Source: an uncultured candidatus Porisulfidus sp.
GTDB lineage: Bacteria > Pseudomonadota > Gammaproteobacteria > Poriferisulfidales > Oxydemutatoraceae
Direction: 5' to 3'
Assembly: GCA_965215765.1 (NCBI GenBank)
Contig: OZ244118.1
Span: forward strand, 2,415,801-2,479,800
DNA: 64,000 nt
Both the position numbers and the translations under genes were made by a program. The notes beneath the pieces were generated by a model, which saw only the letters and a program-made list of their open reading frames with translations, had not been told where the DNA came from and searched no databases. Positions 1-54,400 of the stretch are shown piece by piece (positions within the stretch are counted from its first letter, which is position 1; each line of letters opens with the position of its first letter).

Positions 1-905
1 CTGCCCGGGCAACACCGTGGTCGGCGGCCAGCTTAAACCCTGATTGTCCTACTCTCCGGGTCAGGAAACGGCGGTCTGAGCGGGAATCCTGACTTGGGCA
101 CACGCTTCGCGCGCGTGTACGGCAGCAACAGCTATAGCAATTTCTGCAATTGTTCTTGCAGTTCTTCTTTGTGAAGGGTTCCCTAACCCTGATTGTCCCA
201 CTCTCCGAGTCAGGAAACTGCGGTCAGAGCGGAAATAGTCGGGAAACTGAAAAATGCCGCCATTGAAGCCGACTTCAACTGCCCGGGAAACACCGTGATC
301 GGCGGCCAGCTTAAACCCTGATTGTCCCACTCCCCGGGTCAGGAAACGGCGGTCTGAGCAGGAATTCTGACTTGGGCACACGCTTCGCGCGCGTGTACGG
401 CAGCAACAGCTATAGCAATTTCTGCAATTGTTCTTGCAGTTCTTCTTTGTGAAGGGTTCCCTAACCCTGATTGTCCCACTCTCCGGGTCAGGAAACGGCG
501 GTCTGAGCGGGAATCCTGACTTGGGCACACGCTTCGCGCGCGTGTACGGCAGCAACAGCTATAGCAACTTCTGCAATTGTTCTTGCAGTTCTTCTTTGTG
601 AAGGGTTCCCTAACCCTGATTGTCCCACTCTCCGGGTCAGGAAACGGCGGTCTGAGCGGGAATCCTGACTTGGGCACACGCTTCGCGCGCGTGTACGGCA
701 GCAACAGCTATAGCAACTTCTGCAATTGTTCTTGCAGTTCTTCTTTGTGAAGGGTTCCCTAACCCTGATTGTCCCACTCTCCGGGTCAGGAAGTAGCGAC
801 CGGAACAGGAATTCTGACTTGGCACACGCTTCGCGTGCGCGTACGGCAGCAACAGCTATAGCAACTTCTGCAATTGTTCTTGCAGTTCTTCTTTGTGAAG
901 GGTTC
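1..905. repeat. Tandem array, 149-bp unit (full copies starting at 38, 316, 465, 614, 763, plus a 129-bp variant unit at 187-315 whose end matches window bases 1-37). The array runs off the window start. Each full unit carries the last ~52 bp (14 codons plus stop) of the adjacent thioredoxin-like gene.
   Basis: Direct reading: 'ccctgattgtcccactctccgggtcaggaaacggcggtctgagcgggaatcctgacttgggcacacgcttcgcgcgcgtgtacggcagcaacagctatagcaa(c/t)ttctgcaattgttcttgcagttcttctttgtgaagggttccctaa' recurs with period 149. The terminal 'ctatagcaacttctgcaattgttcttgcagttcttctttgtgaagggttccc' is the reverse complement of the codons for ...KGTLHKEELQEQLQKLL* of ORF 856..1440. Confidence 0.9.
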
Positions 906-1440
906 CCTTTTTAATGAAGCGCACAACCTTGTCACGATCAATCAAGGCACTGAATGGCAGCCCGCCTGAGTCGTTGCCGAGTTCTTTGCCTAGTGCAATG
1001 GCGTCACTGAACCCGATGAGCTGGAGATATTTCACCTGCGGCAGGCTGTCAAGGAAGGCTTGGGCTGGTTCAAGTTCATCTATAGCAATTCCCACTACTT
1101 CAAAGCCCTGCTCGTGATACTGGTCACGGAAATCACTGAACACCGGAATCTCACGCAAACACGGGGGGCACCAGGAAGCCCAAAAGTTCAATAAAACCAC
1201 TTTCCCCTCCCAACTTTTGCTGGACACAGTCTCACCGCTGAGGTTTTTCATGGCAAATTCAGGAACTGTTTTGCCAAAATCCACATCTACAACCTGCGTG
1301 TTCGGTTCTTTGTGCTTCCCCTCCGGCAAATCGTACAGCGTTACCCCGGCAATGGTCGCCACGATGGCCAACAGAAGCAAATGAGGAATGAATCTCATTT
1401 TTCCAGGTTCCTTTTCGCTAAACATCTTTTCGTTGGGCAT
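856..1440 (-). CDS. Periplasmic thiol:disulfide oxidoreductase, TlpA/DsbE-like thioredoxin fold (WCPPC active site). Likely true start at the 3rd Met (coordinate 1398, MRFIPHLLLL...), which gives an N-terminal signal/anchor.
   Basis: 194-aa ORF with 'NFWASWCPPCLREIP' thioredoxin CxxC motif and a hydrophobic N-terminus. It lies immediately downstream of dsbD on the same strand. Confidence 0.8.
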   Translation of the reverse strand: MPNEKMFSEKEPGKMRFIPHLLLLAIVATIAGVTLYDLPEGKHKEPNTQVVDVDFGKTVPEFAMKNLSGETVSSKSWEGKVVLLNFWASWCPPCLREIPVFSDFRDQYHEQGFEVVGIAIDELEPAQAFLDSLPQVKYLQLIGFSDAIALGKELGNDSGGLPFSALIDRDKVVRFIKKGTLHKEELQEQLQKLL

Positions 1441-7306: not shown

Positions 7307-7340
7307 ACTGACCGATACTCCCGACTAAAAGCCAGTCTCT

Positions 7341-7877
7341 ATGAAACTCCTTCTCCTTGACCGTGACGGGGTCATCAACGAAGACGTTGGATATGTGAAA
7401 TCGGCATCTGAATGGCATGCACTACCTGGCAGTCTTGAAGCGATAGCACGCCTTAGCCAGAACGGCTGGTTTGTAACATTGGTATCCAACCAATCTGCCT
7501 TGGGCAGGAAAATCCTTTCTTTGGACAATCTGGCAGAAATCCAGGGAAAATTGCAAGCAGAGTCAGCTGCAACGGGAGCAGCCATAGCCGGACTGTCCTT
7601 TTGTCCCCACCTGCCAGACGCCGGTTGCGAGTGCCGCAAACCAGCCCCCGGGATGCTTCTGAACATTGCCAAAAGGCTGGATGTCAACCTGGCAGAAGTC
7701 CCATTCATTGGTGACAAGCTAAGCGACATACTTGCTGCCAAAGCTGCAGGGGCGCGCCCTATGCTGGTTTTGACAGGGCAGGGAAAGGAGGATGTAAAGA
7801 ACCCCGGCTTCCCAAGTGATGTCCCTGTTTACCAGGATTTGGCAGAAGCCACGGACCAACTGTTATCCGCTCACTAG
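7341..7877 (+). CDS. gmhB: D-glycero-beta-D-manno-heptose-1,7-bisphosphate 7-phosphatase (HAD-IIIA, histidinol-phosphatase-like)
   Basis: 178 aa. 'LLLDRDGVIN' HAD motif I, 'CxHxxxxxCxCRKP' Zn-binding motif ('CPHLPDAGCECRKPAPGM'), 'IGDKLSDILAAKAAGA' motif III. Confidence 0.85.
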   Translation: MKLLLLDRDGVINEDVGYVKSASEWHALPGSLEAIARLSQNGWFVTLVSNQSALGRKILSLDNLAEIQGKLQAESAATGAAIAGLSFCPHLPDAGCECRKPAPGMLLNIAKRLDVNLAEVPFIGDKLSDILAAKAAGARPMLVLTGQGKEDVKNPGFPSDVPVYQDLAEATDQLLSAH

Positions 7878-8930
7878 ACCCGTTTCCAGGATCCAAAAAC
7901 GTAGCCTGGCTCAGCAATTGCGTGCTGCGCGCTGTACCCGAAGACGCGTATCAAGCTATGTGTTTTTTGCGGGTACCCTGGCCGGACGAAATCTGGCAGA
8001 AATCCAGGGAAAATTGCAAGCAGAGTCAGCCGCAACGGGAGCAGCCATAGCCGGACTGTCCTTTTGTCCCCACCTGCCAGACGCCGGTTGCGAGTGCCGC
8101 AAACCAGCCCCCGGGATGCTTCTGAACATTGCCAAAAGGCTGGATATCGACCTGGCAGAAGTCCCATTCATTGGTGACAAGCTAAGCGACATACTTGCTG
8201 CCAAAGCTGCAGGGGCGCGCCCTATGCTGGTTTTGACAGGACAGGGAAAGGAGGATGTAAAGAACCCCGGCTTCCCAAGTGATGTCCCTGTTTACCAGGA
8301 TTTGGCAGAAGCCGCGGACCAACTGTTATCCGCTCACTAGACCCGTTTCCAGGATCCAAAAAACGTAGCCTGGCTCAGCAATTGCGTGCTGCGCGCTGTA
8401 CCCGAAGACGCGTATCAAGCTATGTGTTTTTTGCGGGTACCCTGGCCGGACGAAATCTGGCAGAAATCCAGGGAAAACTGCAAGCAGAGTCAGCCGCAAC
8501 GGGAGCAGCCATAGCCGGACTGTCCTTTTGCCCTCACCTTCCAGACGCCGGTTGCGAGTGCCGCAAACCAGCCCCCGGGATGCTTCTGAACATTGCCAAA
8601 AGGCTGGATATTGACCTGGCAGAAGTCCCATTCATTGGTGACAAGCTAAGCGACATACTTGCTGCCAAAGCTGCAGGGGCGCGCCCCATGCTGGTTTTGA
8701 CAGGACAGGGAAAGGAGAATGTAAAGAACCCCGGCTTCCCAAGTGATGTCCCTGTTTACCAGGATTTGGCAGAAGCCGCAGTCCAACTGTTATCCGCTCA
8801 CTAGACCCGTTTCCAGGATCCAAAAAACGTAGCCTGGCTCAGCAATTGCGTATCGCATGCTGTACCCGGAAACGCATATCAAGCTATGCGTTTTTGCGGG
8901 TACCCTGGTCGGAAGAAATCTGACAGGCGG
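7531..8930 (+). repeat. Tandem triplication, about 462-bp unit (copies 7531-7993, 7994-8454, 8455-8915, then about 15 bp of a fourth). Each copy carries the 3' 115 codons of gmhB plus about 120 bp of downstream sequence.
   Basis: Near-identical blocks read directly. ORFs 7816..8340 and 8382..8804 are read-through frames that re-enter the duplicated GmhB C-terminal frame ('...AEIQGKLQAESAATGAAIAGLSFCPHLPDAGCECRKP...LLSAH'). Confidence 0.9.
8870..8895 (+). terminator. Candidate intrinsic terminator: 9-bp stem aaacgcata / tatgcgttt, 6-nt loop, followed by a T-run
   Basis: Read directly in the last (most distal) repeat copy. The corresponding hairpin is imperfect in copies 1-3. Confidence 0.35.
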
Positions 8931-9300
8931 GAGTATCGGCGCAAGTTATGCCGGAGCTCGGTGTCAGGAGCAGTTCGGGCGGGTGGTCTGGTCGCAGACA
9001 ACCAAGGCTAGGTGACTGACAGTTACACAACAACTTCTGTGACCGGGAAAGGTCTGGTCGCGGGTCTTGTGGCAAACAATCAGGGTGCCGTCAGCTGTAG
9101 GGGCGCGGTAGGGTCAGTGTCCGGAGCCGGACAGCCCGGAAGTTTTGCCGGCAGCAGTCCGAGTCCGGGAGGCATTGCCGACAGCTACGCGTAGGTTGCC
9201 TCGCGTCAATGGTGGCAGTGTGCCTTTTGTGGAAGATGACGTCGGGCAGGCATCAGACTTTCTGCCGAGTCTCGTGCCTGACGGCACCCGGTTGACTACC
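8925..9300 (+). pseudogene. Decayed fragment (about 370 bp, multiple stops) of a giant GLUG-repeat gene. Plus-strand orientation, fused to the end of the gmhB repeat array.
   Basis: Translation 'VTGKGLVAGLVANNQGAVS.RGAVGSVSGAGQPGSFAGSSPSPGGIADSYA*' aligns to the 'FVTGEGLVAGLVADNQGTVSRSYAAGSVSGAGQPGSFAGSSSGGIADSYAAALPR..' segment of the paralogs at 24.4-64 kb. The downstream portion is degenerate. Confidence 0.75.
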
Positions 9301-9310
9301 TGTTGACGGG

Positions 9311-9814
9311 CTAAACGTCTCCTGCGGCGGCTCTGGCGAGCTCCGATTCGATGGCTCTCAGGGCTGCGTTATAAGTATCAATGCTTTTACCGCCAGCCTT
9401 GGTAACGTCTTTCACCATTCCCCAAGCGTGGTTCAGTCCCTTTTGCACGGCGGAATTCTCACCGACAGGCATCTCGCTTTTAATCGCTTCTTCCAGACCG
9501 TGCAATGTTTTTTCTCTTTCCGCAGTTTGCGCATCGGGAAAAATCAGATCTTTGACAAAGGAGATTATCCAATCAACCGGCCCTTGCGGCCCTCTGTCAA
9601 TGCGTGGGTTTCCGTTTTTATCGATGAACAACTCGGGCGCAAACCCGCTTCCTGACCTTTCGAGTTTTCCGATTGCTTCCCGAAAGCCGGCAAGCCCTCT
9701 CTTCTGTGAATAATCATATCTGGCGGTGTTCACGCTTGGTGTCGCGTGTCTGGCTCCTATTACCGGGTGTGGCATTGTGCTTCTCCTTTCGTCCGTGGTT
9801 GCATCACCGCTCAA
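9311..9814 (-). CDS. Hypothetical protein (167 aa; possible start at MPHPVIG, coordinate 9776). No recognisable family.
   Basis: Open frame co-oriented with the downstream aldo/keto reductase. No motif recognised from sequence alone. Confidence 0.4.
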   Translation of the reverse strand: MSGDATTDERRSTMPHPVIGARHATPSVNTARYDYSQKRGLAGFREAIGKLERSGSGFAPELFIDKNGNPRIDRGPQGPVDWIISFVKDLIFPDAQTAEREKTLHGLEEAIKSEMPVGENSAVQKGLNHAWGMVKDVTKAGGKSIDTYNAALRAIESELARAAAGDV

Positions 9815-9883
9815 TCTCGCTTAATTGTCAGGTTGCTGATTGAGCAAAACAATAGGGTTCTATTGTACCACTGACTCGCCTGT

Positions 9884-13779: not shown

Positions 13780-14586
13780 TCAGTCGAGCAGTCCTGTTTC
13801 AGGCGAAGAACTGCTGGCAAAGCGACGCTTTGTCATGCGTCCGGCCAGGTAGGCAGCACGTCCTGCCTGTACTGCCAGATTCATGGCATGTGCCATAGTT
13901 ACAGGTTTCCTGGCCATCGCGATTGCGGTGTTCATCAACACGCCGTCGCAGCCAAGTTCCATCGCAATGGCAGCGTCCGAAGCAGTTCCAACTCCGGCAT
14001 CCACAATTACCGGCACCCGCGCGTTCTCTACAATGCTGCGAATATTGCCCGGATTGCGGATACCCTGCCCTGAGCCTATCGGTGCGGCCAAGGGCATCAC
14101 AGCCGCGCAGCCGATTTCTTCAAATCGTGTCGCCATAACGGGATCGTCGTTGGTGTACACCATCACCTTGAAGTCTTTCCGGATCAGCAGTTCTGCTGCT
14201 TCCAGCGTCTGTATGACATCCGGAAACAAGGTTTTTTGATCAGCGAGCACCTCCAGCTTGACAAAAGAATGTCCGAGCAATTCACGCGCGAGCAAGCACA
14301 CACGAACTGCGCTTTCTGCCGTGTAGCAGCCAGCCGTGTTCGGAAGAATGAACCAGCGATCCGGGCCCAGTGTTGACAACAGATCCGGTTCTTTTGTGGC
14401 ATGTTCCAAATTCATTCGGCGCAAGGCGACGGTCACAATCTCGGCTCCGGAAGCCAGCACTGCCGCTTTGCTTTCTTCCAGATCCCGGTATTTTCCGGTT
14501 CCAACCAAAAGACGCGAAGTGAACGATTTATCGGCAATAAGCAGTTTTTCAGTCATCGGCAATTCCCGCTGTTTTCCATGTCTCAT
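13780..14586 (-). CDS. thiG: Thiazole synthase ThiG. Alternative, likelier start [12 protein letters not shown] at 14556.
   Basis: '[19 protein letters not shown]' and '...[14 protein letters not shown]' ThiG family signatures. Immediately downstream of thiS. Confidence 0.9.
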
Positions 14587-15329
14587 CCCCGTTAACCGCC
14601 ACCAATAGCCCGAACAATTTCAACCGCATCGCCATCTTCGAGAATACATTGATCGTATTCATCGCACGGTACAATCTTGCGGTTCACTCTTCCAGATCCC
14701 GGTATTTTCCGGTTCCAGCCAAAAGGCGCGAAGTGAACGATTTGTCGGCAATAAGCAGTTTTTCAGTCATCGGCAATTCCCGCTGTTTTCCATGTCTCAT
14801 CCCCGCTAACCGCCGCCAATAGCCCGAACAATTTCAACCGCATCGCCATCTTTGAGAATGCATTGATCGTATTCATCGCACGGTACAATCTCGCGGTTCA
14901 CTCTTCCAGATCCCGGTATTTTCCGGTTCCAGCCAAAAGACGCGAAGTGAACGATTTATCGGCAATAAGCAGTTTTTCAGTCATCGGCAATTCCCGCTGT
15001 TTTCCATGTCTCATCCCCGCTAACCGCCACCAATAGCCCGAACAATTTCAACCGCATCGCCATCTTCGAGAATGCATTGATCGTATTCATCGCACGGCAC
15101 AATCTCGCGGTTCACTCTTCCAGATCCCGGTATTTTCCGGTTCCAGCCAAAAGGCGTGAAGCAAACGATTTGTCGGCAATAAGCAGTTTTTCAGCCATCG
15201 GCAATTCCCGCTGTTTTCCATGTCTCATCCCCGCTAACCGCCACCAATAGCCCGAACAATTTCAACCGAATCGCCATCTTCGAGAATGCATTGATCGTAT
15301 TCATCGCACGGCACAATCTCGCGGTTCAC
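14474..15329 (-). repeat. Four tandem 214-bp units. Each spans the thiS 3' end (last ~35 codons incl. ...VRAIGGG*), the 20-bp intergenic spacer and the thiG 5' end (first ~33 codons). The outermost copies are the genuine gene ends.
   Basis: Marker 'tcatcggcaattcccgctgttttccatgtctcatcccc' recurs at 14553, 14767, 14981 and 15195. Homology begins at 14474 inside thiG and ends at 15329 inside thiS. Confidence 0.9.
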
Positions 15330-15434
15330 TTCGGCGGCAAATAATTGCCCGTCAAGATCCAGCTTGCCAAGTAATCCCCCGAGGGTCAGCCCTTGGGGAT
15401 ATTCGTTCTGATGCCCGTTTAACTTGAGATTCAT
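15234..15434 (-). CDS. thiS: Sulfur-carrier protein ThiS (66 aa, C-terminal GG)
   Basis: 'MNLKLNGHQNEYPQGLTLGGLLGKLDL...[14 protein letters not shown]' with the typical ThiS length and GlyGly terminus. The longer ORF-track frame is rejected. Confidence 0.85.
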   Translation of the reverse strand: MNLKLNGHQNEYPQGLTLGGLLGKLDLDGQLFAAEVNREIVPCDEYDQCILEDGDSVEIVRAIGGG

Positions 15435-15674
15435 GATCCTTTCTGCCTGGCCAAAGTCAGCGTTTATGACCTTCCTCGCTATACTACCCGAAGTCTTTGT
15501 CAGGCCTTTGTGCAGTCGTGGCTCCTGCCTGAGAAAAACTACTTCTGTGCCGAAAAAAGAACCTGTTCGCTCCGCATGATTCGACCCGATGACTTTTACA
15601 AGCTCGAACAAAAACTTCTTATGGCCAAGGCTGTCAGCGACCTTTCATCTTGCTTTCTGCCACGGTGATTTTCC

Positions 15675-16739
15675 GTGAGCTTTGAAATGCCCCACCGTTG
15701 TCTGGTTGTAGGCGGCGGCGTACTGGGTCTGTTTACGGCTCTCAAGCTTCGCAAGCTGGGCTGGCAAGTGACTTTGCTGGAGAAACAAAGCCTGGGAGCC
15801 GGGGCGAGCTCGGCTGCAGGCGGGATCCTGAGCCCGCTGTACCCTTGGCGGCAAAGCCGGAAAATAAATTGCCTGTTCAGCCAGTCTCTGTACGCATACC
15901 AGAGATTCTTTCGGGAAACAGCGGCATTGGGGATGAGAGTGGCTTATTCCCAACCGGGCTTGTTTTGCCTGGATGTTGAAGAGCACCCCATGGCGCGCAA
16001 GTGGGTCGCATCCCGACACCTTTCCCTGGAAACATGGCCTCGCCGGCGACTGCGTGCCGTCTTTCCGCGCTTGCGCGCTGGCAGTGGCTTTTTTCTGCCG
16101 GATGTTTGCCAAGTAGATCCGGTCAATTTAATTGCCAGGCTGACGCAACTGGCGACTCATCATGGGGTTCGTATTCGTGAAAATATGTCAGTCCGAAAAT
16201 TGCTGCTGCGCAACCGTATGGTTGGCGGCGTGATTTGCGAGCGAGAAGAAATTCGCGGTGATGCCGTCGTGATTTGCGCTGGCGCATGGTCTAAAGAGCT
16301 GATTCCCACAGCACAAAAATGGTGCCCGGTACGCCCCGTAAAAGGACAAATCATCGAGTACCGTACAAAACCGGGACTATTGCCACATATCGTGTTGCAC
16401 CGTGGAAAGTATTTAATTCCCAAACCGGACGGACGGATTCTTGCCGGCAGCACTTTGGAAAATTCCGGCTTTGACACCACACCGACATCCGCCGCTCGCG
16501 TCGAACTGGACAGCTTTGCCAGGAGCGTTCTTCCAGGACTTTCCATATACAAAATATCTGATCAGTGGGCAGGGTTGCGCCCCGGACTCGCCACGCCCTT
16601 CGTGGGGGCACATCCCGATATTAAAGGCCTTTTTCTCAATACCGGACACCACCGCAATGGAATCGTGCTGGCATCCGGCTCAGCAGACTGGATTGCTGCG
16701 GCGTTTGCACGGCTAATCCTCAGAAACAACCCGGCTTGA
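15675..16739 (+). CDS. thiO: Glycine oxidase ThiO (FAD-dependent)
   Basis: 354 aa. 'CLVVGGGVLGLFTALKL' FAD-binding motif. Divergent from thiS-thiG, as in many beta/gamma-proteobacterial thi loci. Confidence 0.8.
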   Translation: MSFEMPHRCLVVGGGVLGLFTALKLRKLGWQVTLLEKQSLGAGASSAAGGILSPLYPWRQSRKINCLFSQSLYAYQRFFRETAALGMRVAYSQPGLFCLDVEEHPMARKWVASRHLSLETWPRRRLRAVFPRLRAGSGFFLPDVCQVDPVNLIARLTQLATHHGVRIRENMSVRKLLLRNRMVGGVICEREEIRGDAVVICAGAWSKELIPTAQKWCPVRPVKGQIIEYRTKPGLLPHIVLHRGKYLIPKPDGRILAGSTLENSGFDTTPTSAARVELDSFARSVLPGLSIYKISDQWAGLRPGLATPFVGAHPDIKGLFLNTGHHRNGIVLASGSADWIAAAFARLILRNNPA

Positions 16740-35406: not shown

Positions 35407-38400
35407 TCAGCGAATCATACCGCCCAGGAATACCCTCAGGCGCAATTTCTTGACGTGATGCGGACCTGGTCTCGGCGTTGTCGGGATCTCGGGATCCCAG
35501 TTGATAAATTGACTCACTCCTGGCAGCTCAGCCACGCTGTCCCGAGGGAATGCCCGGACTTCGTACGCGACACCGCCCTGCAACCCCGTAAATTCCATCC
35601 TGACGGCTCCCCCGGGCGTCGGCATCGCAACAGACTGTTCCTCTATCAGTTCCCCGTATGAAAGCAGTTGTACCCGATACCCCAAGCCGAGCAATATTCC
35701 GTCAACCGGGGCTCCGAAATCAGCATGATCCGCAGTGCGTCCATAGCCATCATTCCCCGAATATTGCAAGTGTACCTGCACACGACCATTCGCCTTGTGC
35801 ATCAGCTGCATGGCCAATGTTCCCTCAAGAACGTCGAGCAAGGTAAATGCTGCTGTGCCCATCGCGCCCGTTCCGGCGCGGTTGACTGCCCGGAGCGAAT
35901 AGCGTATCTGCTCTCCTCCTGCGTGCTTCTTGCGCAGCTGCACCACGACATGGCCTGACAACACATAAGAAGTGGCGGTTCCCGAGACGGGGTGGCTTTT
36001 TCCGTCCACAAAAAGCTGGTAGCTGTCTATCGTCGCCCCGTTGCTGCTCGCCGCTTCCCAACTCAGGTTCACCCGATCTGCGGACTTCCACCTGGCTCGC
36101 AAGCCCGAAGGTCTGCCAGGCACCGCTATGGTGCTGAACGCGCTTCTGTTTTCGGATGCCTGGGCGGGCTCCCCGGTGCCAGCCCGGTTGCGTGCATAGA
36201 CCTGTAACGAATAGCTTCTCTTCGGCAGCAAGTCGGTGATCTCAATCTCGGTGTCAAAAGCACCTGCCGAGAAAAAGGTCTCGGTGCTGCGTCCTCCAGC
36301 ACTCACCACCACCACGTAGCCAAAACCGGAGCCTGCAACGCGATCAGAGGAAGACGCAAGCGCATCACCCGCCAGGGGAGCGCAATCGTCATGTCCCATG
36401 ATCATCAACACCAGGCGCGCAGTGGTTTGCCCGGGCACCAGCTCCGTTATCGTCGTCGCGCCCGGAAGACCGGGCAAATAGAAATGACCGACCGCCGGAT
36501 AGCCAGCGACATCTCCGCGCACAGCGCGAAGACGGTACGGGTGGGGGCAAGCCCCCTGGCTGTTTTTCCGAAACTCAGCCAGAAAATCTCCGTTGAAGTC
36601 AAAAGTCGGTGCTGTGACTTCCCGTATTGTTCCTGCCAGTTCAAGTTCGTACGAATCAACCGCTGGACTTCCCGCCGCCCAAGTAAAGCGCAGATGATCC
36701 GGAGATTCCCAGCTCACCGCCAAATCAACCGGTGCGGCAGGAATGTCGACAAGCGCGCGCAGCAAGGGCAACGTGCGGGTATTGCCAAAATGCCAGGCTC
36801 CCGGTTCCCAGCCGGCATAAGTCGTGGCACCTGCGCATCTTTGCCCCGCCGCAGTCGGGCAACGCAGCTGGGTCAGAGTGCGAGGTAAAGCACCTTCCGT
36901 CAAGCCACTGCCCACCAAAGATGCCTGTGCAGACACGGGTGCGTAACTGCGATCAATCACCGCATCCGGAGCAGAATAACCCGCCAGACTCCCGGTGCTG
37001 CCCGATTCCCCAACAACCCTGTTCGCTGCATAGCTGTCCTGTATGCGGCGGATATTGTTTCCGACCAGTCCCCCGATAGAGAAATGACCCCGCACCTCAC
37101 CGAGTGCATAGCTCGCATGGACAGAACCCGAGTTGATGCCCACCAGTCCGCCAACACGGCTATCTCCGCTGACCGACACGTCGGCATAGCTGTAGGCAAT
37201 GGTGCTTCCGCTGTAGCCGACCAGACCGCCGGCGCGCGAGCCGTCCACAGCGATGGCCGAACCTGTCGCGTAACAGTGCAAAATCGTGCTTCCCTGGCTA
37301 TAGCCAACCAGACCGCCAGCATTGTCCCGCCCTTCACCCGTGACGCGCACCGCCGCATCGGCACTGCTGTGCAAAATAGCGGCTCCCAGAGCCAGACCGG
37401 CCAGACCACCGGCAGACTCAAGCGCGCTTACTTGCGAAGCCCTCACCGTGCTGCCCACGACCCGACCTTTTGCTTTCACATAACCGACCAGACCGCCGAC
37501 GTATCTGCCCCCGCCAACCTCGGCACTGGCACCACTGTTGATCAACAATCCTCCGTTGCCACCCGCCAGCCCGCCAATGTTGAGCCCGGCTCTGTTGCCG
37601 GAAATCTGTGCGGACTTCACAACGCTGTTCATGACGGTTCCGTCGTTAAAGCCGACCAAGGCTCCGACGCTGTTTTTTCCTTTTACCCACGCATCAACGA
37701 GCACCACATCTTTGACGATCCCGTCTATTGCAACTCTGGAAAACAGGCCAACCGTATCCGTCTCCGGGCGGTTAATGTGCAGAGCAGAGATTTGCCGCCC
37801 TGCCCCGTCGAAAGTGCCTGAAAAAGGCTCTATCGGATGAAAACCGGCGCCGCCTGACCACTCCCGACTCGACCGGGCGTCAATATCTGCCACCTGCACA
37901 TAGTGAGCGTGCAGATCAGAGCGCACATCCTGCAGTTGGCACAACGTGCCAATTTGCCACGGGTTGTCGCCGCTGCCGTCACCCTGCGCACTTTTCAGAC
38001 CCTTGCCGGCGCATCCCGGAAAGCGGGTCACCGACCCGGATCGTTGACGGCGATCCGGTGCCCACCGTGTTATGGGCGAAGGCTTCCAGCCGATATGCAA
38101 AGGCACTTTTAAGCTCCGTAAATTCCATTGTGACCGGGCTCAGAGGACTCCCCAGCGGAATGTCGCGTTCTTCAACCAGCTCCCCGGACGCATACAGATG
38201 TATCCGGTAAGCCAGGTGCAAAGCCATGGCTTCCGCTGACGTTGCGTAATCAGCGTCACCCGGTTTGCGACCGTAGCCGTCATTGGCCGGGGCTGTAAAA
38301 CTGAGTCTCAGCGTGGAGACCCCCGGCACCACGTGCATATCAGCCGGAGAACCAGGAACATCCAGCAGGCGCACGGAAACACGGGCAGCTTCGCCAACAC

Positions 38401-41400
38401 CATAAAGGTTGTAGCCACGAACCGTTAAAAAGAGCGTATTCCCGCCTTCATGACGGGCGCGCAGCTTCTGCAACCAGTCCGATCCTCCCACGTAGTACAA
38501 CGATGCGGTTTCCTCAGCAGCGATCGATGGAGCCTCAATCCGGTAAGCGATCAGTTCTTTGGTGTGAAGCGGAGGCTCCCAACGCAGCAACAAGGCAGAC
38601 GGGGATTTCCACTGCGCGAGCAGGCGCAAGGGTTTGCCAGGAGTCTCAAAGCCCTGCAGAACCGGCAGCGTCCTGTAATCTCCGAAGGACCAGATCTCGG
38701 CACTCCAGCCTGAGTATGTTGACCTTCCCGCACACGCCAGGCCGGGGGCGGTGGGACAACGCAGTTGCTGTAGCGTCCGCAAGGAGCCTGATCCCTGCCC
38801 GGCGTCATCTGCCACAAAAGGCATGCCGCCACCATTGGGGCCATTGACGCGAGGCAACGCTGCTGCGTAGCTGTCGGTAATGCCTTCCGAACTGCTGCCG
38901 GCAAAACTTCCGGACTGTCCGGCTCCGGACACCGAGCCTGCCGCATAGCTGCGGCTGACGGTGCCCTGATTGTTTGCCACAAGACCCGCGACCAGACCTT
39001 CCCCGGTCACAAAAGCTGTTGTGTAACTGTCAGTCACCGAGCCCCGGTTGTCTGCGACCAGACCACCCGCCCGAACTGCTCCTGACACCGAGCCTCCGGC
39101 ATAGCTTGTATCAATACTCCCGGTTACCAGATTTCTTCCGACCAGGCCACCCGCTACTTGGCCTCCCGGCTCTGCCGTCAGCTGTGCCGCGCTGCCGCTG
39201 ATCATGCCTGCGTTGATACCGACGAGTCCTCCCGCCACTTGCCCGCCAAAAAGTGAGCCCGTCACCCCGCTGTTCACGATCCTTCCTCCCTCGTTCCTGC
39301 CCGCCAGAGCACCCACGTTGACGCTTCCCCAAAGCTGTGCGTTCACCAGCACGACCTGCTGCAATAACCCGCCCCGAAGCTGCGCAAACATGCCGACATC
39401 TTCCAGCGCCTCAGAGCGCACCCTTAAATGGAAAATCTGATGACCGGCGCCATCAAGGGAACCGGAAAAATCAGCAATCGGCGCAAAGCCTTTTCCGGCT
39501 CGCCAGTCCCGGGATGGACCTGCCTCAATATCGCTTGCCAGCCGGTAGTGGGCTGCAGGAACAGAGCGAATGTCCTGCAATTGGCACAGCGTGGCAATCT
39601 GCCAGGGATTGTCCTCGCTGCCCGAACCGCCTGCCGATGCCAGGGCTTCCCCGTCGCACTGCCAGGGACGGGTAAATGCCGACAGGAAAAATGACGACCC
39701 TTCTCCAACATTGTTATAGGGCGTCGCCTCCACTTCATAGCGGCTATTGCTTGCCAGACCCGAAAATTCCACAACTGCGGATGTTTCGCCAGCTGTGTGC
39801 GCACGCTCCCGCTCCTGCACCAGTTCTCCCCCGGCGTACAACCGTACCCGGTAACCCAAACCTGAAGAAACCCCGACACTCGTATATCCGTAAGCCGGGT
39901 CTTCCGGTGATTGGCCGTAGCCGTCGTCAGCCGGAGCCATAAGAAACACCTGCAGCGAAAATGCCTGCGCCGATGCCCGAACGACCGTCAATTTGCCTGG
40001 GGCTCTCAGCAGTCTGATCACAACCGTCGTCGCTTCGCTCATGCCATGGCGGTTATATCCACGCACGCTGACTTGCAAGGTACTGTCCCTATATTCGGAA
40101 CGGAGGTTTTTCACCAGGTGCCTGCCGAGCGTAAAAGATGCGGATCCCGTTTCCAGGGAACGCCCTGCCACCTCCACCCAATAGCCGGCGTTCAGACTTC
40201 CTGTTTTCGCGGCTGTCCAGTTCAGTTCCAGATCACCTTCCAGGTTCCATCGCGCCTGCAGGCGTGAAGGGGGAGCAGGTGGCACTGCTTGCAGGGCGCG
40301 ATGGGTCGGGAGCGTCTGCTCGTCCCCGAAATACCAGATTTTGGTGCTCCAGCCGGAGTAACTGATTGCTCCCTGGCACGTGTCTCCCGGCAAAAGAGGA
40401 CACTGCAATTGCGCCAGCGTGCGGGAAAAATTGTTTTCTGTGGCGTCCTCTTCCCCGCTGCCCACGAGTTCCAGCGCGCTGCTGCCGACACCCGGCTCCA
40501 AGGCGTAATTCGCAACCATATCGGTGCCCACGGATTGCCCCACCAGCATGCCCGCCTGATTGTTCCCGTTAACCAGACCTGTCGCATAACTGTCCTCAAT
40601 ACTGATGTTTCTGTTGCGGAAGTGACCACTGTTTCCCGCCAGGCCGCCTACCTGCACATTCCCGCTGACCGAACCAGTCGCATAACTGTCGTCAATCGAG
40701 CCTCGACTGGTTCTTCCCACCAGCCCGCCTGCCTGCACATTCCCGCTGACCGCTCCGGTCGCATGGCTTCTGAGGATTGACCCTGAGTTGAGACCCACCA
40801 GACCTCCCACACGGTCCCCCGCGCCGATAACCATGCTGTCCGAGTAGCTGTCAACTATGGAATAGGGATGATCGTGCTGACCCACCAACCCGCCCACATC
40901 CTCTACCCCATTGACCGCTCCTGCCGAATAAGAGCCGCTTATAAAGCCATGGTTATAACCCGCCAGCCCGCCTACATATTGATGCCCGCTTACCGTTGAC
41001 TGCGCGTGGCAGTGGTAGATCGGAGCCACATTGAACCCCACCAGCCCACCAACACTGTTTGCGCCGCTCACACTTCCTCTCGCGTGCGAACTGCGTATCC
41101 TCGCGCCCCAGGCATTCCTGCCCACCAGTCCGCCTATCATGTTGCCGTGCCTCTGGAAATCAACCGTTCCGACAACGGTAGACTCCGAATGGCTGAGCTT
41201 GATTAAGCCATGATTCTCACCTGCCACTCCTCCCACACGATTCCGCCCGCCTATCAACCCAGTCACCGTGCTGCCCTTGATGCTTCCATTTGCCGCAACG
41301 CGTCCTGCCAGGGCTCCTGTTGCATTTCTGCCCCGCACCGTAACATTCACGAGTGCCAGCCTTTGCAGAGCACCACCGTTGAGCTTCCCGAACAGCCCGA

Positions 41401-44400
41401 CATGGTCTGCTTGCCCAGGATTGATCAAAAGACTCAGAATACTGTGACCACTCCCGTCCAGAGAGCCGGAAAAAGATTCAATCGGTGGAAAACCCTTTCC
41501 GTCTCGCCACTCGTGGCTTTGCTTCGCGTCTATATCGTTTGCCACCCGATAATCAGCTGCCGTGTCGTAACGTATTTCATGCAACTGGCAAAGTGTGCCG
41601 ATCTGCCAGGGGTCATCCTCGCTGCCAGAGCCCGCTGCCGTTATCACCGCTGCCCATGGACACGCGCCAACGTAGGTGAAAACCGGTGCTATCACCGTTG
41701 TTGAGCCTGCGCCCGTCTTGTTTCTGGCAAACATCCTGACTTCGTACCTGGAACCACCTTCCAGGCCTGAAAACTCCACTACGGTCGTGCTTGACCATTC
41801 CTGCTGTGTCACACGCCGCACTTCTTTCAACAGGCCTTTTGAAAACAGTTGCACGTGGTATGCGAGATCCAGCGCAACTCCGCCTGCCGGCTCCCCGTAC
41901 ACGTTGCTGCCCGGTGCGCGTCCGTAGCCATCATCAGCGGCTCCGGTAATGGTGACCTGTATTGTTGACAGCCCCGAAGCTGTCTGAGTCCCCACCTCCC
42001 CCGGAACTTTCATCAAATGGAAACTTCCCGACGCTGCATCTCCCGCAACGCCTCCTTTTACGCCGCGTATGGAATAGTGGATTTCACTGCCGCTGACGTA
42101 ATGCTCACGCAATTCAGCCATTAATGAGCCGCCAAGCGCGAAACGGGTTCCCTCGGTGTCTCGAATGATTCCGCCCACCTCCACCTCAAAAGAATTCACG
42201 GCAACTCCTTGATGCCACCCCCACTGCAGCGTCAATCCACCTCTCGAATTCCAGTTTGCACGGACTGCATGCGGGGCAACGGGAACATCCGTAACTGTCC
42301 GGAGCACGGGCAGCATGCGAGAGTTCCCGAAATACCAAATCCTCGTATCCCAACCCAGATACACACCAGCTGCCCGACAAAGATTGACGGGCAACATCGA
42401 GCACTTCATCTGCTCCACGGTGCGCAAATCACTGCCCTGTACTGCACCGTTATCCTCGCCCAGGAGGCTGTCCCCGTCGCCCAGCTTGCTGGCATAACTG
42501 CGGTCTATCGTGCCACCATTGACTCCGACCAGCCTGCCCGGCAAATCAGTTCCGCCTACAGCACCCGTGCTATAGGCACTTCTGACCAAGCCGCTGTTTT
42601 CGCCGACCAGTCCACCTGTCTGACTGTCTCCGGTCACTACGCCTCGTGCGTAACTGTTACCAATGCTTCCCCAGTTTTCGCCGACCAGACCCCCAACCTG
42701 GTTCTTTCCAGTCACACGTGCGTTCACGTTTGTATGGCTGTTCACGATGCTGGCGTTGCCCCCGTTCACACCCACCAGACCACCTGCCTGACTGCCTCCG
42801 GACACCGGGCCTTGTGCGTAGCTGTCACTGATGCTTCCCTTGTTATCGCCGACCAGACCACCTGCCTGACTGCCTCCGGACACCAGGCCTTGTGCGTAGC
42901 TGTCACTGATGCTTCCCTTGTTATCGCCCACCAGACCCCCAACCTGGTTCTTTCCAGTCACACGTACTCGCCCGTTTGTATAGCTATTCACGATCCTGGC
43001 GTTGCCCTCGCTCACACCCACCAGACCACCCACCTGACTGTCTCCGGACACTACGCTTTGCGCGTGGCTGTTGCTGATGCTTCCCCAGTTTTCGCCGACC
43101 AGACCCCCGACCTGGTTCTTTCCACGTACTTGCCCCTTGCTGTGGCTACTCACGATGCTGGCGTTTTTCAGGTTCATACCTACCAGACCGCCTACCTGAC
43201 TGTCTCCGGACACCGTGCTCCACGTGTAGCTGTCACTGATGCTTCCCCAGTTTTCGCCGACCAGACCCCCGACCTTGTTCTTTCCACGTACTTGCCTAAG
43301 TGCATGGCTACTCACGATCCTGGCTTCGTTCACACCCACCAAGCCCCCAATCCCGGGGGCTGCTCCGACAACATAGCTCTCCGTGTAGCTGCCACTGATG
43401 GTGCCGCCAAGGTGCCAACCCACCAGACCACCCACGTAGCCCCTCCCTGAGGCATGAGTCCCGGTCACATCTCCAGTCGCATCGCTGGAAGTGACCGAAC
43501 CCCTGTTTTTGCCCACCAGACCTCCGACTTGATTGCCTCCTGTTACTGCACCCCTCGCATGACTGCCCACAATCGTGCCACCGTCATTCTGACCCACCAG
43601 ACCGCCGGAAACCCATGTGTTGCGAGAATTCTTCCCAACCCTTACCGTCGACGTGCTGTTACGAATGACACCGCCCCGATTCAGGCCAACCAGCCCACCG
43701 ATGGTTTTGCCCCCGTCAACCTTGCCATCAACCATGCTGCCCTCAATCGTCCCCCGATCGTTCAGCCCAACCAGAGAACCGACATTCACTCCGCCGTTCG
43801 TCGAAAAATTCACCAGCTTCACGCGCTTCAGCAAGCCACCCTGCAACTCGCCAAACAACCCTGTGTTCTCGAATTCTCCGGCTGTTGCACTGACCTTCAA
43901 ATTGGAAATTTTGTAACCGTTGCCATCATAGGTGCCAGAAAAACCCTTGATCGGTGCAAAACCGTCTTTCCAGCCATGCGTCATCGTCGTTGCGTCTATA
44001 TCCTTGATCTGGACGTAGTGCGACTGAGGCGATGCTTCCATGTCGCGCAAATGGCACAGGTTTTCTACCTGGTAGGGATCAGTTTCAGTTCCGGAACCTG
44101 CCATGGCCTGCGAACTTATAGCGCACGCCTGATCTGGATCCATGTAGGGAAATTGGCTGCCGTTGTAATAGGTGTCTCCGTAATTGAGAATGTTGAAGGC
44201 TCTTTCGTCCGTGTAAATCCCTCCCATCCCATAATAAAATGAGGTGCAATCCCGACCCTCCTCGCCCGGATGGGCATTTAGAACCCCTATCATCATGCCG
44301 GTCTTTTTATAAAATGCGGATGAGCCGGACGCTCCAAACGTAGGAGAGATGCCCTTATACGTTAAATCCAAAAACCAGCAAATCGCTCCTTCGCAGAAAG

Positions 44401-45664
44401 GCGGGCCGCCTCTCTTACCGCCGACGCTCCCGAGTGAATCGGTCGCTGCCACTGCACTTTCAAACTCACCCAGCTGCTGAGGCTTGGAGCCAGAGTGGTG
44501 TACGGAGAAACCACTGAAAGTATCGGTAGTGCGGGTCATCCACTCCAGCAATTTATAATCTCCGTGCCCGATAAACCGTCCAGTAAGACGCACAATCGCC
44601 CAATCTCCACCCTCATCTCCCGGCACTCTTGCCTTTCCTGCCACGTATCTCACACCAAAGGCGTATGAATCACCAGGAAGACCGATGAAGAATGGCAAAA
44701 ACGGTTTGTCCACAGTGTTAGCGTACGCTTCAGGGAAAAGGTGAAACGCTGTCAGAATGTAGGGGGCTCCATCACCTGACTTGTTCTTTATAAAACTCCC
44801 AGTCCCGCAGCCAGCATCTCCGCCAAAATAGCGGCACATGCTTACGACACCTTTGGTCACATCCCGCACGTAAGCCGGGCTGTCGCTGTTTACATAGTTA
44901 TTGTTACCGGAAACAAATTCGTTGATGTTTGCGCGCTCGCAACTGTCGGCTTGTCTCCGAGGTGCCAGGTTCCTGACTCCCTCTCCGTATAAAACTCCGT
45001 TGTTATCCTTAAATGTGTGGCTCACTTTTTCGACCGAAAAAGGAAAATCGCCTGGCTCCAGGTGGTAACTGTCCGGAACCCAAAACTCTATGACAACGGT
45101 ATCACCAGACACCGGGAACGCCACAAAGCTGCCATCATTACGTGACAAGCCACGTCCCGTGTACTCTACGACCTCTTCATTGCTGTCTCCGGCGAAGGCA
45201 TAGACATTCACCGACATGCCCGGGTCGAGGGGAAACCCAGAAAAATGCAACCACAGCTGCAGGGCAGACGGAGAGCGAATCTGCGCCTGCCAGACATCAA
45301 GACCGTCTTCCTGTTTGACCAGTGCCCAGTTGGAACGCCTTAAATGGACGTCCCGGGCAAAGCTGGTGTAGTTGATCGTTGTCTCACGGAGCAGTTCACG
45401 AATTTGCTCTTGTTCCCGGGTACTGAAAGGCCCCAAGTCCAGTTGCTGTGCGCGGGCAGGATACAGAGTTCGAGTGGCTTCCCGGGCATTCCTCCCCTCC
45501 GAAAAGGGATAGGACGCATAGCCTTGATCTGCCAGAGATTCCTGATCCTGGCCGAAAACAAGAGAGCTCGACGTGATGATAGATACACCCACGAACAGCC
45601 ACTTCAGCCAACCATGGCTGCCGGAAATCTGCGTATCCGAAAATCTGAAACCTGCTTCTTTCAT
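35407..45664 (-). pseudogene. Giant GLUG/S1-protease paralog 2 (about 3,419 codons), interrupted by a +1 frameshift near 38044-38048 (ORF 37979..45664 of 2561 aa, then ORF 35407..38106 of 899 aa). Could be an authentic pseudogene, or a sequencing/assembly error in a repeat.
   Basis: The two ORFs overlap by 128 nt. Paralog 1 has 'gggtcaccgtccggatcg' where paralog 2 has 'gggtcaccgacccggatcg'. The protein is collinear with paralog 1 on both sides of the break ('...STIR' | 'VTRFPGCAGKGLKSAQGDG'). Confidence 0.65.
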
Positions 45665-47305: not shown

Positions 47306-47719
47306 TCACTCTCTGATGTCCCAGCACGGCTGTACGCGCCGAAAAATCACTAGTGGGTCAATTGTACAAAATAACGCCCATTTCAGCAAATTATTATAAG
47401 AAGATACCGGCCTCATCCGACCGGAAAACCCCGAAAACAGTACCAAGGTGTGCAGTCTTATTTGTGAGCTTTTTGGTCTCCAAGGGGGTGAATCAGTGGC
47501 AATAGTCGGCACTGCAACTTCCTGTTTTTAACCACGAAAAACGTGAAAGTTGGTATTTGCAATTCGTATGATTTCAGTTTTGTGACAGCTTCCAAAGTTC
47601 ACCAAAAGCCCCAATTCAAGGCCTGTTGTTTTAAGACAATTCAACAGTTGTGCTTCATGCTCATCAACAATGTTTGTCATGGCAGATATAGTCAGGCTTA
47701 TGGACTTGCTTTAAAGGTT

Positions 47720-51400: not shown

Positions 51401-54400
51401 AGCTTCGCCAACACCATAAAGGTTGTAGCCGCGAACCGTTAAAAAGAGCGTATTCCCGCCTTCATGACGGGCGCGCAGCTTCTGCAACCAGTCCGATCCT
51501 CCCGCGTAGTACAACGATGCGGTTTCCTCAGCAGCGAGCGACAGAGCCTCAATCCGGTAAGCGATCAGTTCTCTGGTGTGAAGCGGAGGCTCCCAACGCA
51601 GCAACAAGGAAGACGGGGATTTCCACTGTGCCAGCAGGCGCAAGGGTTTGCCAGGAGTCTCAAAGCCCCGCAGAACCGGCAGCGTCCTGTAATCGCCAAA
51701 GGACCAGGTCTCGGCACTCCAGCCTGAGTATGTTGACCTTCCCGCACACGCCAGGCCGGGGGCAGTGGGGCAACGCAGTTGCTGCAGCGTCCGCAAGAAG
51801 CCTGATCCCTGCCCTGCGTCATCTGCCACAAAAGGCATGCCGCCACCATTGGCGCCATTGCCGCGAGGCAACGCTGCCGCATAGCTGTCGGCAATGCCTC
51901 CCGAACTGCTGCCGGCAAAACTTCCAGGCTGTCCGGCTCCGGATACCGACCCTGCCGCGTAGCTGCGACTGACGGTGCCCTGATTGTCCGCCACAAGACC
52001 CGCGACCAGACCTTCCCCGGTCACAAAAGCTGTTGTGTAACTGTCAGTCACCGAGCCCCGGTTGTCTGCGACCAGACCACCCGCCCGAACTGCTCCTGAC
52101 ACCGAGCCTCCGGCATAGCTTGTATCAATACTCCCGGTTACCAGATTTCTTCCGACCAGGCCACCCGCTACTTGGCCTCCCGGCTCTGCCGTCAGCTGTG
52201 CCGCGCTGCCGCTGATCATGCCTGCGTTGATACCGACGAGTCCTCCCGCCACTTGCCCGCCAAAAAGTGAGCCCGTTGCGCCGCTGTTCACGATCCTTCC
52301 TCCCTCGTTCCTGCCCGCCAGGGCTCCCACGTTGACGCTTCCCCAAAGCTGCGCGTTCACCAGCACGACCTGCTGCAACAGACCGCCCTGAAGCTGCGCA
52401 AACATGCCGACATCTTCCAGTCGTCTCAGAGCGCACCCTTAAATGGAAAATCTGATAACCGGCACCATCAAAGGAACCGGAAAAATCAGCAATCGGCGCA
52501 AAGCCTTCTCCGGCTCGCCAGTCCCGGGATGGACCTGCCTCAATATCGCTTGCCAGCCGGTAGTGGGCTACAGGAACAGAGCGAATGTCCTGCAATTGGC
52601 ACAGCGTGGCAATCTGCCAGGGATCGTCCTCGCTGCCCGAGCCGCCCGAACCGCCTGCCGACATCAGGGCTTCCCCGTCGCACTGCCAGGGACGGGTAAA
52701 TGCCGACAGGGAAAATGACGACCCTTCTCCAACATTGTTATAGGGTGTTGCCTCCACTTCATAGCGACTATTGCTTGCCAGACCCGAAAATTCCACAACT
52801 GCAGATGTTTCGCCGGCTGTGTGCGCACGCTCCCGCTCCTGCACCAGTTCTCCCCCGGCGTACAACCGTACCCGGTAGCCCAGACCTGCGGAAACCCCGA
52901 CACTCGTATATCCGTAAGCCGGGTCTTCCGGTGATTGGCCGTAGCCGTCGTCAGCCGGAGCCAGAAGCAACACCTGCAGCGAAAATGCCTGCGCCGATGC
53001 CCGAAGGTCTGTCAATTCGCCTGGGGCTCTCAGCAGCCTGATCGCAACCGTTGTCGCTTCACTCATGCCATGACGGTTATATCCACGTACGCTGACTTGC
53101 AAGGTACTGCCCCTATATTCGGAACGGAGGTTTTGCACCAGGCGCCTGCCGAACGTAAAAGATGCGGACTCCGTTTCCAGGGAACGCCCTGCCACCTCCA
53201 CCCAATAGCCGGCATTCAGGCTTCCTGTTTTTGCAACTGTCCAGCTCAGTTCCAGATCACCTTCCAGGTTCCATTTCGCCTGCAGGCGCGAAGGGGGAGC
53301 AGGTGGCACTGCTCGCAGGGCGCGATGAACCGGAAGCGTCTGCTCGTCCCCGAAATACCAGATTTTGGTGCTCCACCCGGAGTAGCTGACTGCTCCCTGG
53401 CACGTGTCTCCCGGCAAAAGGGGACACTGCAGTTGCGCCAGCGTACGGGAAAAGTTGTTTTCTGTGGCATCCTCTTCCCCGCTGCCCACGAGTTCCAGCG
53501 CACTGCTGCCGACACCCTGCTCCAAGGCGTAATTCTCAGCCATATCGGTGTTTTCGGAATGTCCCACCAGCATGCCCGCCTGATTATTCCCGTTAACCAG
53601 ACCAGCCGCATAACTGTTCACAATCCTGATGTTGTTGTCGGTGCTGCGCTCACTGTTTCCCGCCAGCCCGCCTATCTGCGCTTTCCCGCTCACCGAACCG
53701 GTCGCATAACTGTCGACAATCGAGCTGTTCCTGCTTTCTCCCGCCAAGCCGCCCACCTGCTCATTTCCGCTGACCGCTCCGGTCGCATGGCTCCTGATGA
53801 TTGACCCTGAGCTGAGGCCCACCAGACCTCCCACACGATTCCCCGCGCTGGTAACCGTGCTGTCCGAGTGGCTGTCAACTATGGAACTGGAATTGTGGTT
53901 ACCCGCCAGCCCGCCCACATCTTCTACCCCGCTGACCGCTCCCGTCGAATAAGAGCCGCTTATAAAGCCATAGTTGGAACCTGCCAGCCCGCCCACAGAA
54001 TGATGCCCGCTCACCGTTGACTGCACATGGCTGTGATAGATCGGAGCCTGATTGAGCCCTACCAGTCCACCAACATTGTTTGTGCCGCTCACACCTCCTC
54101 TCGCGTGCGAACTGCGTATCCTCGCACCCGGGAAGTTTTTGCCCACAAGTCCGCCTATTGCGTGGCCGTGCCCCTGGGAATCAGTTGTTCCGGCAACGGT
54201 GGACTCCGAATGGCTGAGCTTGATCAAGCCATGATTCTCACCTGCCACTCCTCCCACACGTCTCCGACCGCCTATCAGCCCCGTCACCGTGCTGCCCTTG
54301 ATGCTTCCATTTGCCGCAACACTTCCTGCCAGGGCTCCTGTTGCATCTCTGCCCCGCACCGTGACATTTACCAGAGCCAGCCTTTGCAGGGCACCACCGC

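Follow-up and report, generated by a model that had tools for sequence, protein, structure and literature searches.

Gene duplications in Salmonella and Escherichia coli, as studied by Reams and Roth, begin with a join mediated by microhomology and are then amplified or lost by unequal exchange between the homologous copies. The laboratory duplications are kilobases to hundreds of kilobases long and near-identical, and they are unstable and lost without selection. Here we describe a tandem array formed from the 3' part of gmhB and its flank, located in a 64,000-nucleotide stretch (hereafter the window) of the chromosome of an uncultured Candidatus Porisulfidus species (contig OZ244118.1, positions 2,415,801 to 2,479,800 of the forward strand). 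The array resembles the Salmonella and E. coli duplications in the 10-nt homology at its junctions, in being made of whole copies plus a remainder, in changes of copy number that need only homology, and in the microhomology deletions nearby. It is unlike them in that its units are small, are 1-6% diverged, and are found in all sampled strains of the species.

The closest analogue of the arrays in the window is the set of variable repeats of Ehrlichia ruminantium (Collins et al. 2005 PNAS; Frutos et al. 2006 J Bacteriol; both as related in PMC10710844 and PMC3287509). As far as those accounts describe them, the two sets share large units (roughly 100-470 bp), few copies, and a position mostly outside genes or at gene edges. 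Tandem repeats identified with Tandem Repeats Finder (TRF) are given as 6.3% of the E. ruminantium genome, versus 0.38% in E. coli (PMC3287509). E. ruminantium is an AT-rich, obligate intracellular alphaproteobacterium, whereas the host here is a sponge-associated gammaproteobacterium with a genome of ~3 Mb, and the figure for E. ruminantium is genome-wide, whereas the 13.8% occupied by arrays here refers to one 64-kb window. The E. ruminantium repeats reportedly also duplicate gene ends.

Silent-cassette systems, including pilE/pilS of Neisseria, the msp2 pseudogenes of Anaplasma and vlsE of Borrelia (PMC4534519), combine one complete expressed gene with 5'-truncated, promoter-less copies, and the gmhB array has the same layout. 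As in those systems, segments appear to be exchanged with the expressed copy, which at gmhB is suggested by the mosaicism and the divergence of the live part of the gene described below. The gmhB array differs from them in that its gene encodes a cytoplasmic phosphatase of a lipopolysaccharide precursor and not a surface antigen, and in that the cassettes stand directly in tandem with the gene.

The unit of the array starts inside gmhB and ends outside it. The head-to-tail array occupies 7527-8926 of the window and comprises 3.0 copies at a period of 463/464 bp, with 97% matches and without indels (TRF score 2604); TRF, a repeat finder and a MAFFT alignment agreed on its extent and structure. 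Chance is not the cause of the array. The intact housekeeping gene gmhB (7341..7877, + strand, 178 aa; identified by its matches to NF006506 and 3L8H, given below) has its last 116 codons inside the first unit. This live unit, W1 (7527..7989, + strand, 463 bp), runs from gmhB codon 63 through codon 178 and the stop into the 3' flank. The units W2 (7990..8453, 464 bp) and W3 (8454..8916, 463 bp), both on the + strand, each hold a 5'-truncated gmhB fragment (coding parts 7990-8340 and 8454-8804, respectively) plus spacer. Each of the three thus has 116 codons (N63-H178), a TAG stop and then ~113 nt of 3' flank that includes a hairpin. Substitutions private to W2 are absent, and 5 sites separate it from W1; W3 differs from W1 and W2 at 20-25 sites, with D151N and D172V among the changes. 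The array sits in a gap between convergent genes, as the next open reading frame (ORF), at 9311..9814, is read from the - strand. An initial annotation, made from the sequence alone, had described a triplication of the 3' part of gmhB. The triplication is real, but the period is not the 462 bp given there, and each copy holds 116 codons instead of 115.

A 10-nt microhomology, AATCTG(G/A)CAG, marks the unit boundaries. AATCTGGCAG opens each unit, at 7527, 7990 and 8454, and the flank-side copy, AATCTGACAG (8917..8926, + strand), forms the start of a partial fourth unit; the two end points match at 9/10 nt. There were 6 matches to the microhomology in the window, compared to 0.37 expected. The units abut, and the 3.0 copies are followed by a 10-nt remainder that is the homology between the start of the unit and the distal flank, as in a duplication formed at a microhomology. 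The variable base is G at some junctions and A at others, a pattern consistent with resolution of the joins, or of subsequent exchanges, to the left or the right of this position.

The complete gene encodes GmhB, and the downstream units lack part of its active site. The product of 7341-7877 scored 193.2 bits against the NCBIfam equivalog NF006506, passing the cut-off of 178, aligned over its full length to PDB 3L8H (E=4e-49), and also matched E. coli GmhB (2GMW/3L8E). By these NCBIfam and PDB matches it is D-glycero-beta-D-manno-heptose 1,7-bisphosphate 7-phosphatase. The two fragment ORFs scored 109.6 and 109.4 bits against the same model, below the cut-off of 178. In the alignment to 3L8H, the DRDG nucleophile motif (residues 7-10) and the SNQS motif II (residues 49-52) occur only once, upstream of the repeat; units 2 and 3 start at residue 63, without HAD motif I (DxD) and the Ser/Thr of motif II. 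The Cys/His cluster CPHx5CEC (CPHLPDAGCEC) is present in 3/3 units. Compared with GmhB of HAD subfamily IIIA (3L8H, 2GMW, 3L8E), the full-length gene gives an end-to-end match and has the CxHx(n)CxC cluster, whereas in units 2 and 3 what remains is motifs III and IV together with the Cys cluster. The translations and the 3L8H alignment therefore bear out the earlier observation that the extra copies hold a Zn-type Cys cluster and are without DxD.

The single-copy state of gmhB is found in the nearest relatives. The nearest genomes by GmhB identity were L001 (94%) and L002 (89%), both complete chromosomes of metagenome-assembled genomes (MAGs) labelled Candidatus Oxydemutatoraceae (OZ243039.1 and OZ250161.1, respectively). 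Oxydemutator is a sulfur-oxidizing gammaproteobacterial sponge symbiont (PMC11685487). L001 and L002 have one gmhB each and no array there, and L001 retains ~100 nt of homologous 3' flank. The units of the window and of a second haplotype of the species (X, below) have 5-31 mutual differences, versus 51-60 against L001. Because both relatives have a single gmhB and the units are far closer to each other than to L001, we conclude that the single-copy state is ancestral.

The number of units varied among strains. We compared the window with four contigs of the gmhB locus from one sample (assembly ENA ERZ25071281). Haplotype X (ctg31084, 16x) has four full units and a truncated fifth, haplotype V (ctg43175, 10x) has four full units and a fifth cut short where the contig stops (at least 4.5 units), haplotype Z (ctg43179, 6x) has ~3.5 units, and haplotype Y (ctg45583, 14x) begins inside the array and has at least 3 units. 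The junction was identical in all four contigs and in the window, while the number of units differed. The gene order in all four contigs was pntAA-pntAB-pntB-gmhB-array-ORF(-)-AKR-SulP-trmB-thiG-thiS, and their flanks were 98.6-99.0% identical to those of the window. As in a variable-number tandem repeat (VNTR), 3.0 units in one haplotype correspond to ~3.5, 4.5 and at least 4.5 in others, between flanks that are 98.6-99.8% identical. Based on these contigs, we judge the array to be real, species-wide, and copy-number polymorphic even within one sample. A scan of JGI metagenomes with the junction sequence gave 0 matches.

A second microhomology marks the distal end of the array in the other haplotypes. 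The last unit of X, Y, Z and V ends at GCTGCAGGGGCGCG, and the sequence resumes after GCTGTAGGGGCGCG (9094-9107), with ~0.4 kb deleted. GCTGTAGGGGCGCG (9094..9107, + strand, in the window) matches at 13/14 positions the GCTGCAGGGGCGCG found inside every unit (at 7743, 8206 and 8670).

The flank beyond the array has features of its own. The ~380 nt between the array and the next gene (8927-9310) are G-rich and ORF-poor and had no Rfam match. We rejected this segment as an older, decayed unit: its local alignment score was 25, compared to a shuffle mean of 19, and only a 15-nt microhomology aligned. At 1423-1493 of the compared sequence L081, a 30-bp tandem repeat of 2.4 copies is present where the window has one copy, and there are more indels between haplotypes. 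The ORF at 9311-9814 (- strand, 167 aa) had no Pfam or NCBIfam match and was called as a 154-aa gene in all ERZ25071281 haplotypes. Duplication of an att site by an integrative element was also considered and rejected: there is nothing between the abutting units, the ORF at 9311..9814 is without a Pfam or NCBIfam match, and synteny runs on into AKR, SulP and thiG in all strains.

The units are mosaics of one another, and the unit that completes gmhB takes part. Among 25 informative sites in seven full units, all four gametes were present at 122 of 300 site pairs, giving a minimum number of recombination events (Rm) of at least 9 within 463 bp. The gmhB genes of the window (W) and haplotype X are identical over the 5' 186 nt and differ at 13/351 nt in the repeated part, where 3.3 differences were expected from the flank rate of 0.93% (P=4e-5; Fisher test of 5' versus 3' part, P=0.006). 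Over 2.9 kb of upstream flank, divergence among haplotypes X, V and Z is 0.2-0.3%, in contrast to 1.3-2.6% in unit 1. The live 3' part is ~5-10 times more divergent between strains than the flanks. The W units had no positional orthologues elsewhere, and the same derived variants were found at different positions depending on the strain: 42T/325A in W1, X2 and V2, and D151N in W3, X2 and V3. Based on the mosaicism, the excess divergence of the live unit and the moving variants, we conclude that unequal crossing-over and gene conversion occurred among the units, including the gmhB-completing unit. We also considered W2 as a simple hybrid from one crossover between W1 and W3 and rejected it, as its allele pattern would need ~11 switches.

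Variants confined to the downstream fragments were mostly nonsynonymous. We polarized derived states with two outgroups and placed 27 variants in a McDonald-Kreitman (MK)-style table. Derived variants found only in downstream fragments comprised 10 nonsynonymous and 2 synonymous changes, compared to 3 nonsynonymous and 12 synonymous changes among those found in at least one live unit (Fisher P=0.0018). The fragment-only changes include A65T, P89S, A110T, R139H, D151N, G156C, D160N, D166G, D172V, and the loss of a stop (TAG>TGG). Unit Z3 (L084 3849-4364) has short insertions (14, 7, 26 and 6 nt), several of them frame-breaking, that resemble local re-duplications of adjacent sequence in the unit, and no ORF was called there; X3 (L083 7113-7575) has the TAG>TGG read-through and four private nonsynonymous changes. 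The changes in Z3 and X3 appear to show small-scale slippage and decay within the array. Additionally, four haplotypes have an incomplete terminal unit. Based on the excess of nonsynonymous changes confined to fragments, the stop loss, the frame breaks and the terminal truncation, we conclude that the fragments are unconstrained pseudogene pieces. Pairwise, W2 and W3 had a ratio of nonsynonymous to synonymous polymorphism per site (pN/pS) of 0.09 (7 synonymous and 2 nonsynonymous differences, P=0.001), compared to 0.10-0.12 for orthologues. Synonymous-rich differences of this kind may represent variation that had been filtered during its time in the live position.

The live gene itself was not diversified in amino acids. 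The live units carried the 3 nonsynonymous and 12 synonymous changes counted above, and GmhB was identical in X, V and Z (P0121). To our knowledge, there is no obvious gain for a cell from variation in GmhB, a cytoplasmic enzyme. Judged by its sequence, the gmhB array would work partly like a silent-cassette system, but it shows none of the amino-acid diversification of the expressed copy that defines such systems, and it is not a member of that class.

Two ORFs run from the spacers into the fragments. The first (7816..8340, + strand, 174 aa, GTG start) begins in the +1 frame inside gmhB, continues through the spacer and then reads fragment W2; the second (8382..8804, + strand, 140 aa, TTG start) reads fragment W3. 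Both exist as the initial annotation gave them, open from the spacer into the fragments. In the public annotation, the W2 ORF is P0003 (173 aa, from the ATG at 7819) and the W3 ORF is P0125 (126 aa, from another start, the GTG at 8424), and in the protein database GmhB (P0128), P0003 and P0125 are products of the window, all on one contig of 2,997,607 bp. Exact look-ups of GmhB and P0003 gave no record, and the contig was reached by way of cluster members. FFAGTLAGRNLAEIQGK is an example of a peptide sequence specific to the junction. The lengths of the fragment ORFs are 174/140 aa in the window versus 136/169/136/99 aa, or no ORF, elsewhere; in other haplotypes, a GCATGC variant of the spacer gives an in-frame ATG and with it the 136-aa ORFs. 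The fragment starts show no Shine-Dalgarno (SD) pairing, but neither do gmhB itself and several real genes. The suggestion that these ORFs are meaningful products was not supported, given their unconserved starts and lengths, the nonsynonymous excess, the stop loss, the frame breaks and the terminal deletion. From this pattern, we take the two ORFs to be incidental open frames.

The hairpins in the three spacers are equivalent. The hairpin after unit 1 (7934..7976, + strand) has a folding energy of -21.8 kcal/mol (z=-2.8), the one after unit 2 (8398..8440, + strand) has the same sequence and the same energy of -21.8 kcal/mol, and the one after unit 3 (8862..8903, + strand) has -22.8 kcal/mol. 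Each spacer folds alike, with an outer stem GUACCCG/CGGGUAC around an inner stem rich in A/U and G.U pairs, and the U-run in all three is the paired 3' arm of the inner stem and not free. The unit-3 hairpin has Watson-Crick pairs where the other two have G.U pairs. The initial annotation had seen a clean hairpin plus T-run terminator at the distal copy (the unit-3 hairpin) only, and had argued from it that transcripts probably traverse all copies. That argument leaned on a difference between terminators that is absent: because the hairpins are equivalent (-21.8, -21.8 and -22.8 kcal/mol), there is no sequence ground for transcription passing hairpins 1 and 2 yet ending at hairpin 3. A scan for promoters and terminators found nothing above the shuffle expectation and no + strand terminator at any copy, the distal one included, and a covariance search of 7000-9900 against Rfam gave no match at E<=1. 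The helix was kept in 11/11 units compared from three genomes, and the changes in it were one-sided and wobble-compatible on the + strand, with 0 compensatory double-sided pairs among the 11 units. This pattern of change is evidence neither for nor against a selected RNA structure.

Based on these results, we believe that the locus is probably a tandem array of long standing and variable copy number, a bacterial 'minisatellite' of a 463-bp unit with unconstrained, incidental fragments. The founding event would have been an illegitimate join between AATCTGGCAG in gmhB (codon 63) and AATCTGACAG ~110 nt past the stop, an end point that sits ~25 nt beyond a stable hairpin, and such a join would duplicate the intervening segment. 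Further copies would then need only homologous misalignment of units. The duplication may have been tolerated because the segment starts in the gene and ends outside it, so that the first unit would still complete gmhB and the extra DNA would fall in a convergent gap. The comparison of strains shows that misaligned exchange, by unequal crossing-over and gene conversion, has changed the copy number (1 in relatives, and 3.0, ~3.5, 4.5 and at least 4.5 in the species) and has also shuffled sequence among units, including the one that supplies the 3' two-thirds of the intact gmhB. The second microhomology (14 nt) produced the terminal deletion in some strains, and the downstream units are 5'-truncated pseudogene pieces evolving without constraint at the protein level. 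Several points weigh against this account. The founding event is reconstructed, and the flank-side microhomology is unalignable in L001, whose flank diverges there. The units stay 2-6% diverged despite evidently active recombination, the MK-style table holds only 27 variants from related, non-independent units, and the W2-W3 pN/pS of 0.09, taken alone, looks like purifying selection on the fragments.

We considered other origins for the array and its divergence. The array could be recent, with its divergence imported into edge units (unit 1 along with the upstream flank, the final unit along with the downstream one) by homologous recombination with diverged single-copy strains, and this we consider unlikely. 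It would account for W2, the middle unit, which has no private changes and lies at an internal node between W1 and W3, for unit differences that are synonymous-rich like those of orthologues, and for W3 being most divergent in the spacer beside the unique flank. However, the internal units X2, X3, V2 and V3 are likewise strongly diverged and mosaic, identical variants are found at different unit positions across strains, and no single-copy donor of the species was found, L001 and L002 being far more distant than any unit. Import and shuffling within the array are not mutually exclusive. That the array is an assembly artefact, in which strain variants or a collapsed or expanded repeat were mis-joined, is extremely improbable, even though the source is a MAG chromosome and strain mixtures occur in such samples: the same junction on the 10-nt homology was present in four independent contigs of another assembly, the units are 1-5% different and so are not duplicated reads, the junction register is always identical, and long reads far exceed the 1.4 kb of the array.

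We also considered whether the fragments or the spacers could be under selection. It is very unlikely that the fragments are expressed, functional C-terminal proteins of GmhB, for example a Zn-binding or a regulatory or dominant-negative half-domain made by read-through. Open frames do lead into both fragments, gene callers annotated P0003, P0125 and P0004, the GCATGC spacer variant yields in-frame ATGs and 136-aa ORFs, and the pN/pS of W2-W3 is low. Against this, nonsynonymous changes outnumber synonymous ones 10 to 2 among the fragment-only variants, which include a stop loss, Z3 is frame-broken, four haplotypes have a deletion in the last unit, the starts and N-terminal extensions vary (174/140 aa versus 136/169/99 aa), HAD motifs I and II are missing, and the copy number is not constant; the starts also lack SD pairing, though gmhB does as well. 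Selection on something other than protein, be it a stack of hairpin terminators or insulators separating the convergent genes, a structured RNA, or a reservoir of gmhB 3' cassettes, seems to us slightly less probable still. The hairpin was kept in all 11 units with most changes wobble-compatible on the + strand, the array is in every sampled strain of the species despite active recombination, and the live unit does get replaced, but there was no double-sided compensatory change and no Rfam match, divergence of the spacers is about that of synonymous sites, and variation in live units is purified and not diversified (3 nonsynonymous to 12 synonymous). We therefore favor the long-lived, variable array with incidental fragments.

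The gmhB array is not the only array at a gene edge in the window. Seven further large-period arrays are at gene edges; with the gmhB array included, such arrays occupy 13.8% of the window. Each of them is either intergenic or bordered by a gene that remains intact, a placement that may reflect the removal of intragenic duplications by purifying selection.

Three of these arrays are near other genes. An array of 149 bp x 4.0 (314-908, 96% identity) takes in the final ~50 nt of a - strand redoxin/AhpC-TSA gene (856..1440) and continues downstream of it, the same design of a 3' end plus flank as at gmhB. An array of 214 bp x 4.0 (14474-15330) links two - strand genes, reaching into the 3' end of thiS (ORF 15234..15611) on one side and into the 5' end of thiG (13780..14586) on the other; its internal units would encode N-terminal fragments of thiG and C-terminal fragments of thiS, and there are 5.0 copies in L081 (6781-7851). 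Between the convergent thiO-like gene (15675..16739) and T2SSE ATPase gene (17427..18626) is an array of 140 bp x ~4 (16773-17387) with an internal 11-bp repeat, GCTCGGAGCCA, and ~7 copies in L081 (9193-10243).

The remaining arrays are associated with giant genes. Arrays of 377 bp, in five copies at 45445-47337 and six at 58451-60720 (94% identity), are at the 5' ends of giant GLUG/fn3 genes and span the first ~220 nt and the upstream sequence of the genes at 37979..45664 and 52125..58670 (- strand). Arrays of 181 bp x ~3-4 are at 47806-48309 and 61188-61901, and the 377-bp and 181-bp arrays sit in an apparent segmental duplication of ~13 kb. The window also contains very long ORFs (3498, 2561 and 2181 aa; one at 24414-34910, - strand) with internal coding repeats of 78, 84, 162-171 and 246 bp, located at 29535-32563, 42594-43429 and 55609-56311. 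These repeat families are common to the paralogues, which are probably surface repeat proteins.

Arrays at gene ends were also found in a relative, at a different locus. L001 has an array with 106/301-bp periods and 7.7 copies at 9621-10778, homologous to 9297-9350 of the window, with extra copies at 6690-6860, just past gmhB. Its unit is the 3' end plus flank of the homologue of the window ORF at 9311..9814 (- strand). Because L001 has its array at another gene end, we conclude that the habit of amplifying gene ends is family-wide and acts at different loci.

A variable tandem array of a partial gene is ordinary in kind. It is possible, though we regard it as doubtful, that the genome is in an unusual regime in which dense, large-unit gene-edge arrays, recombining actively inside one host population, repeatedly rewrite the ends of housekeeping genes such as gmhB, the ends of thiS and thiG, and the 5' ends of the giant adhesin-like genes. 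If so, the gmhB array would be an expression site fed by silent 3' cassettes, and arrays of this kind would be a general source of turnover at gene ends, possibly of new ORFs, rather than a one-off accident.

For annotation, the called 'HAD hydrolase' genes of 173/174 and 126/140 aa (136/169/99 aa in related assemblies) would be pseudogene fragments, and gmhB is 7341-7877 only. The locus indicates that tandem duplication of part of a gene can be tolerable when an intact copy remains at the edge of the array. Through exchange among the units, the 3' part of the live gene diverges between strains 5-10 times faster than its 5' part and yet looks purified, and such divergence could mislead analyses of dN/dS (the ratio of nonsynonymous to synonymous substitution rates), recombination and strain typing. 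Finally, the density of arrays in the window suggests that they are a genome-wide property of Candidatus Oxydemutatoraceae, and they may provide VNTR-type markers for tracking strains in sponges.

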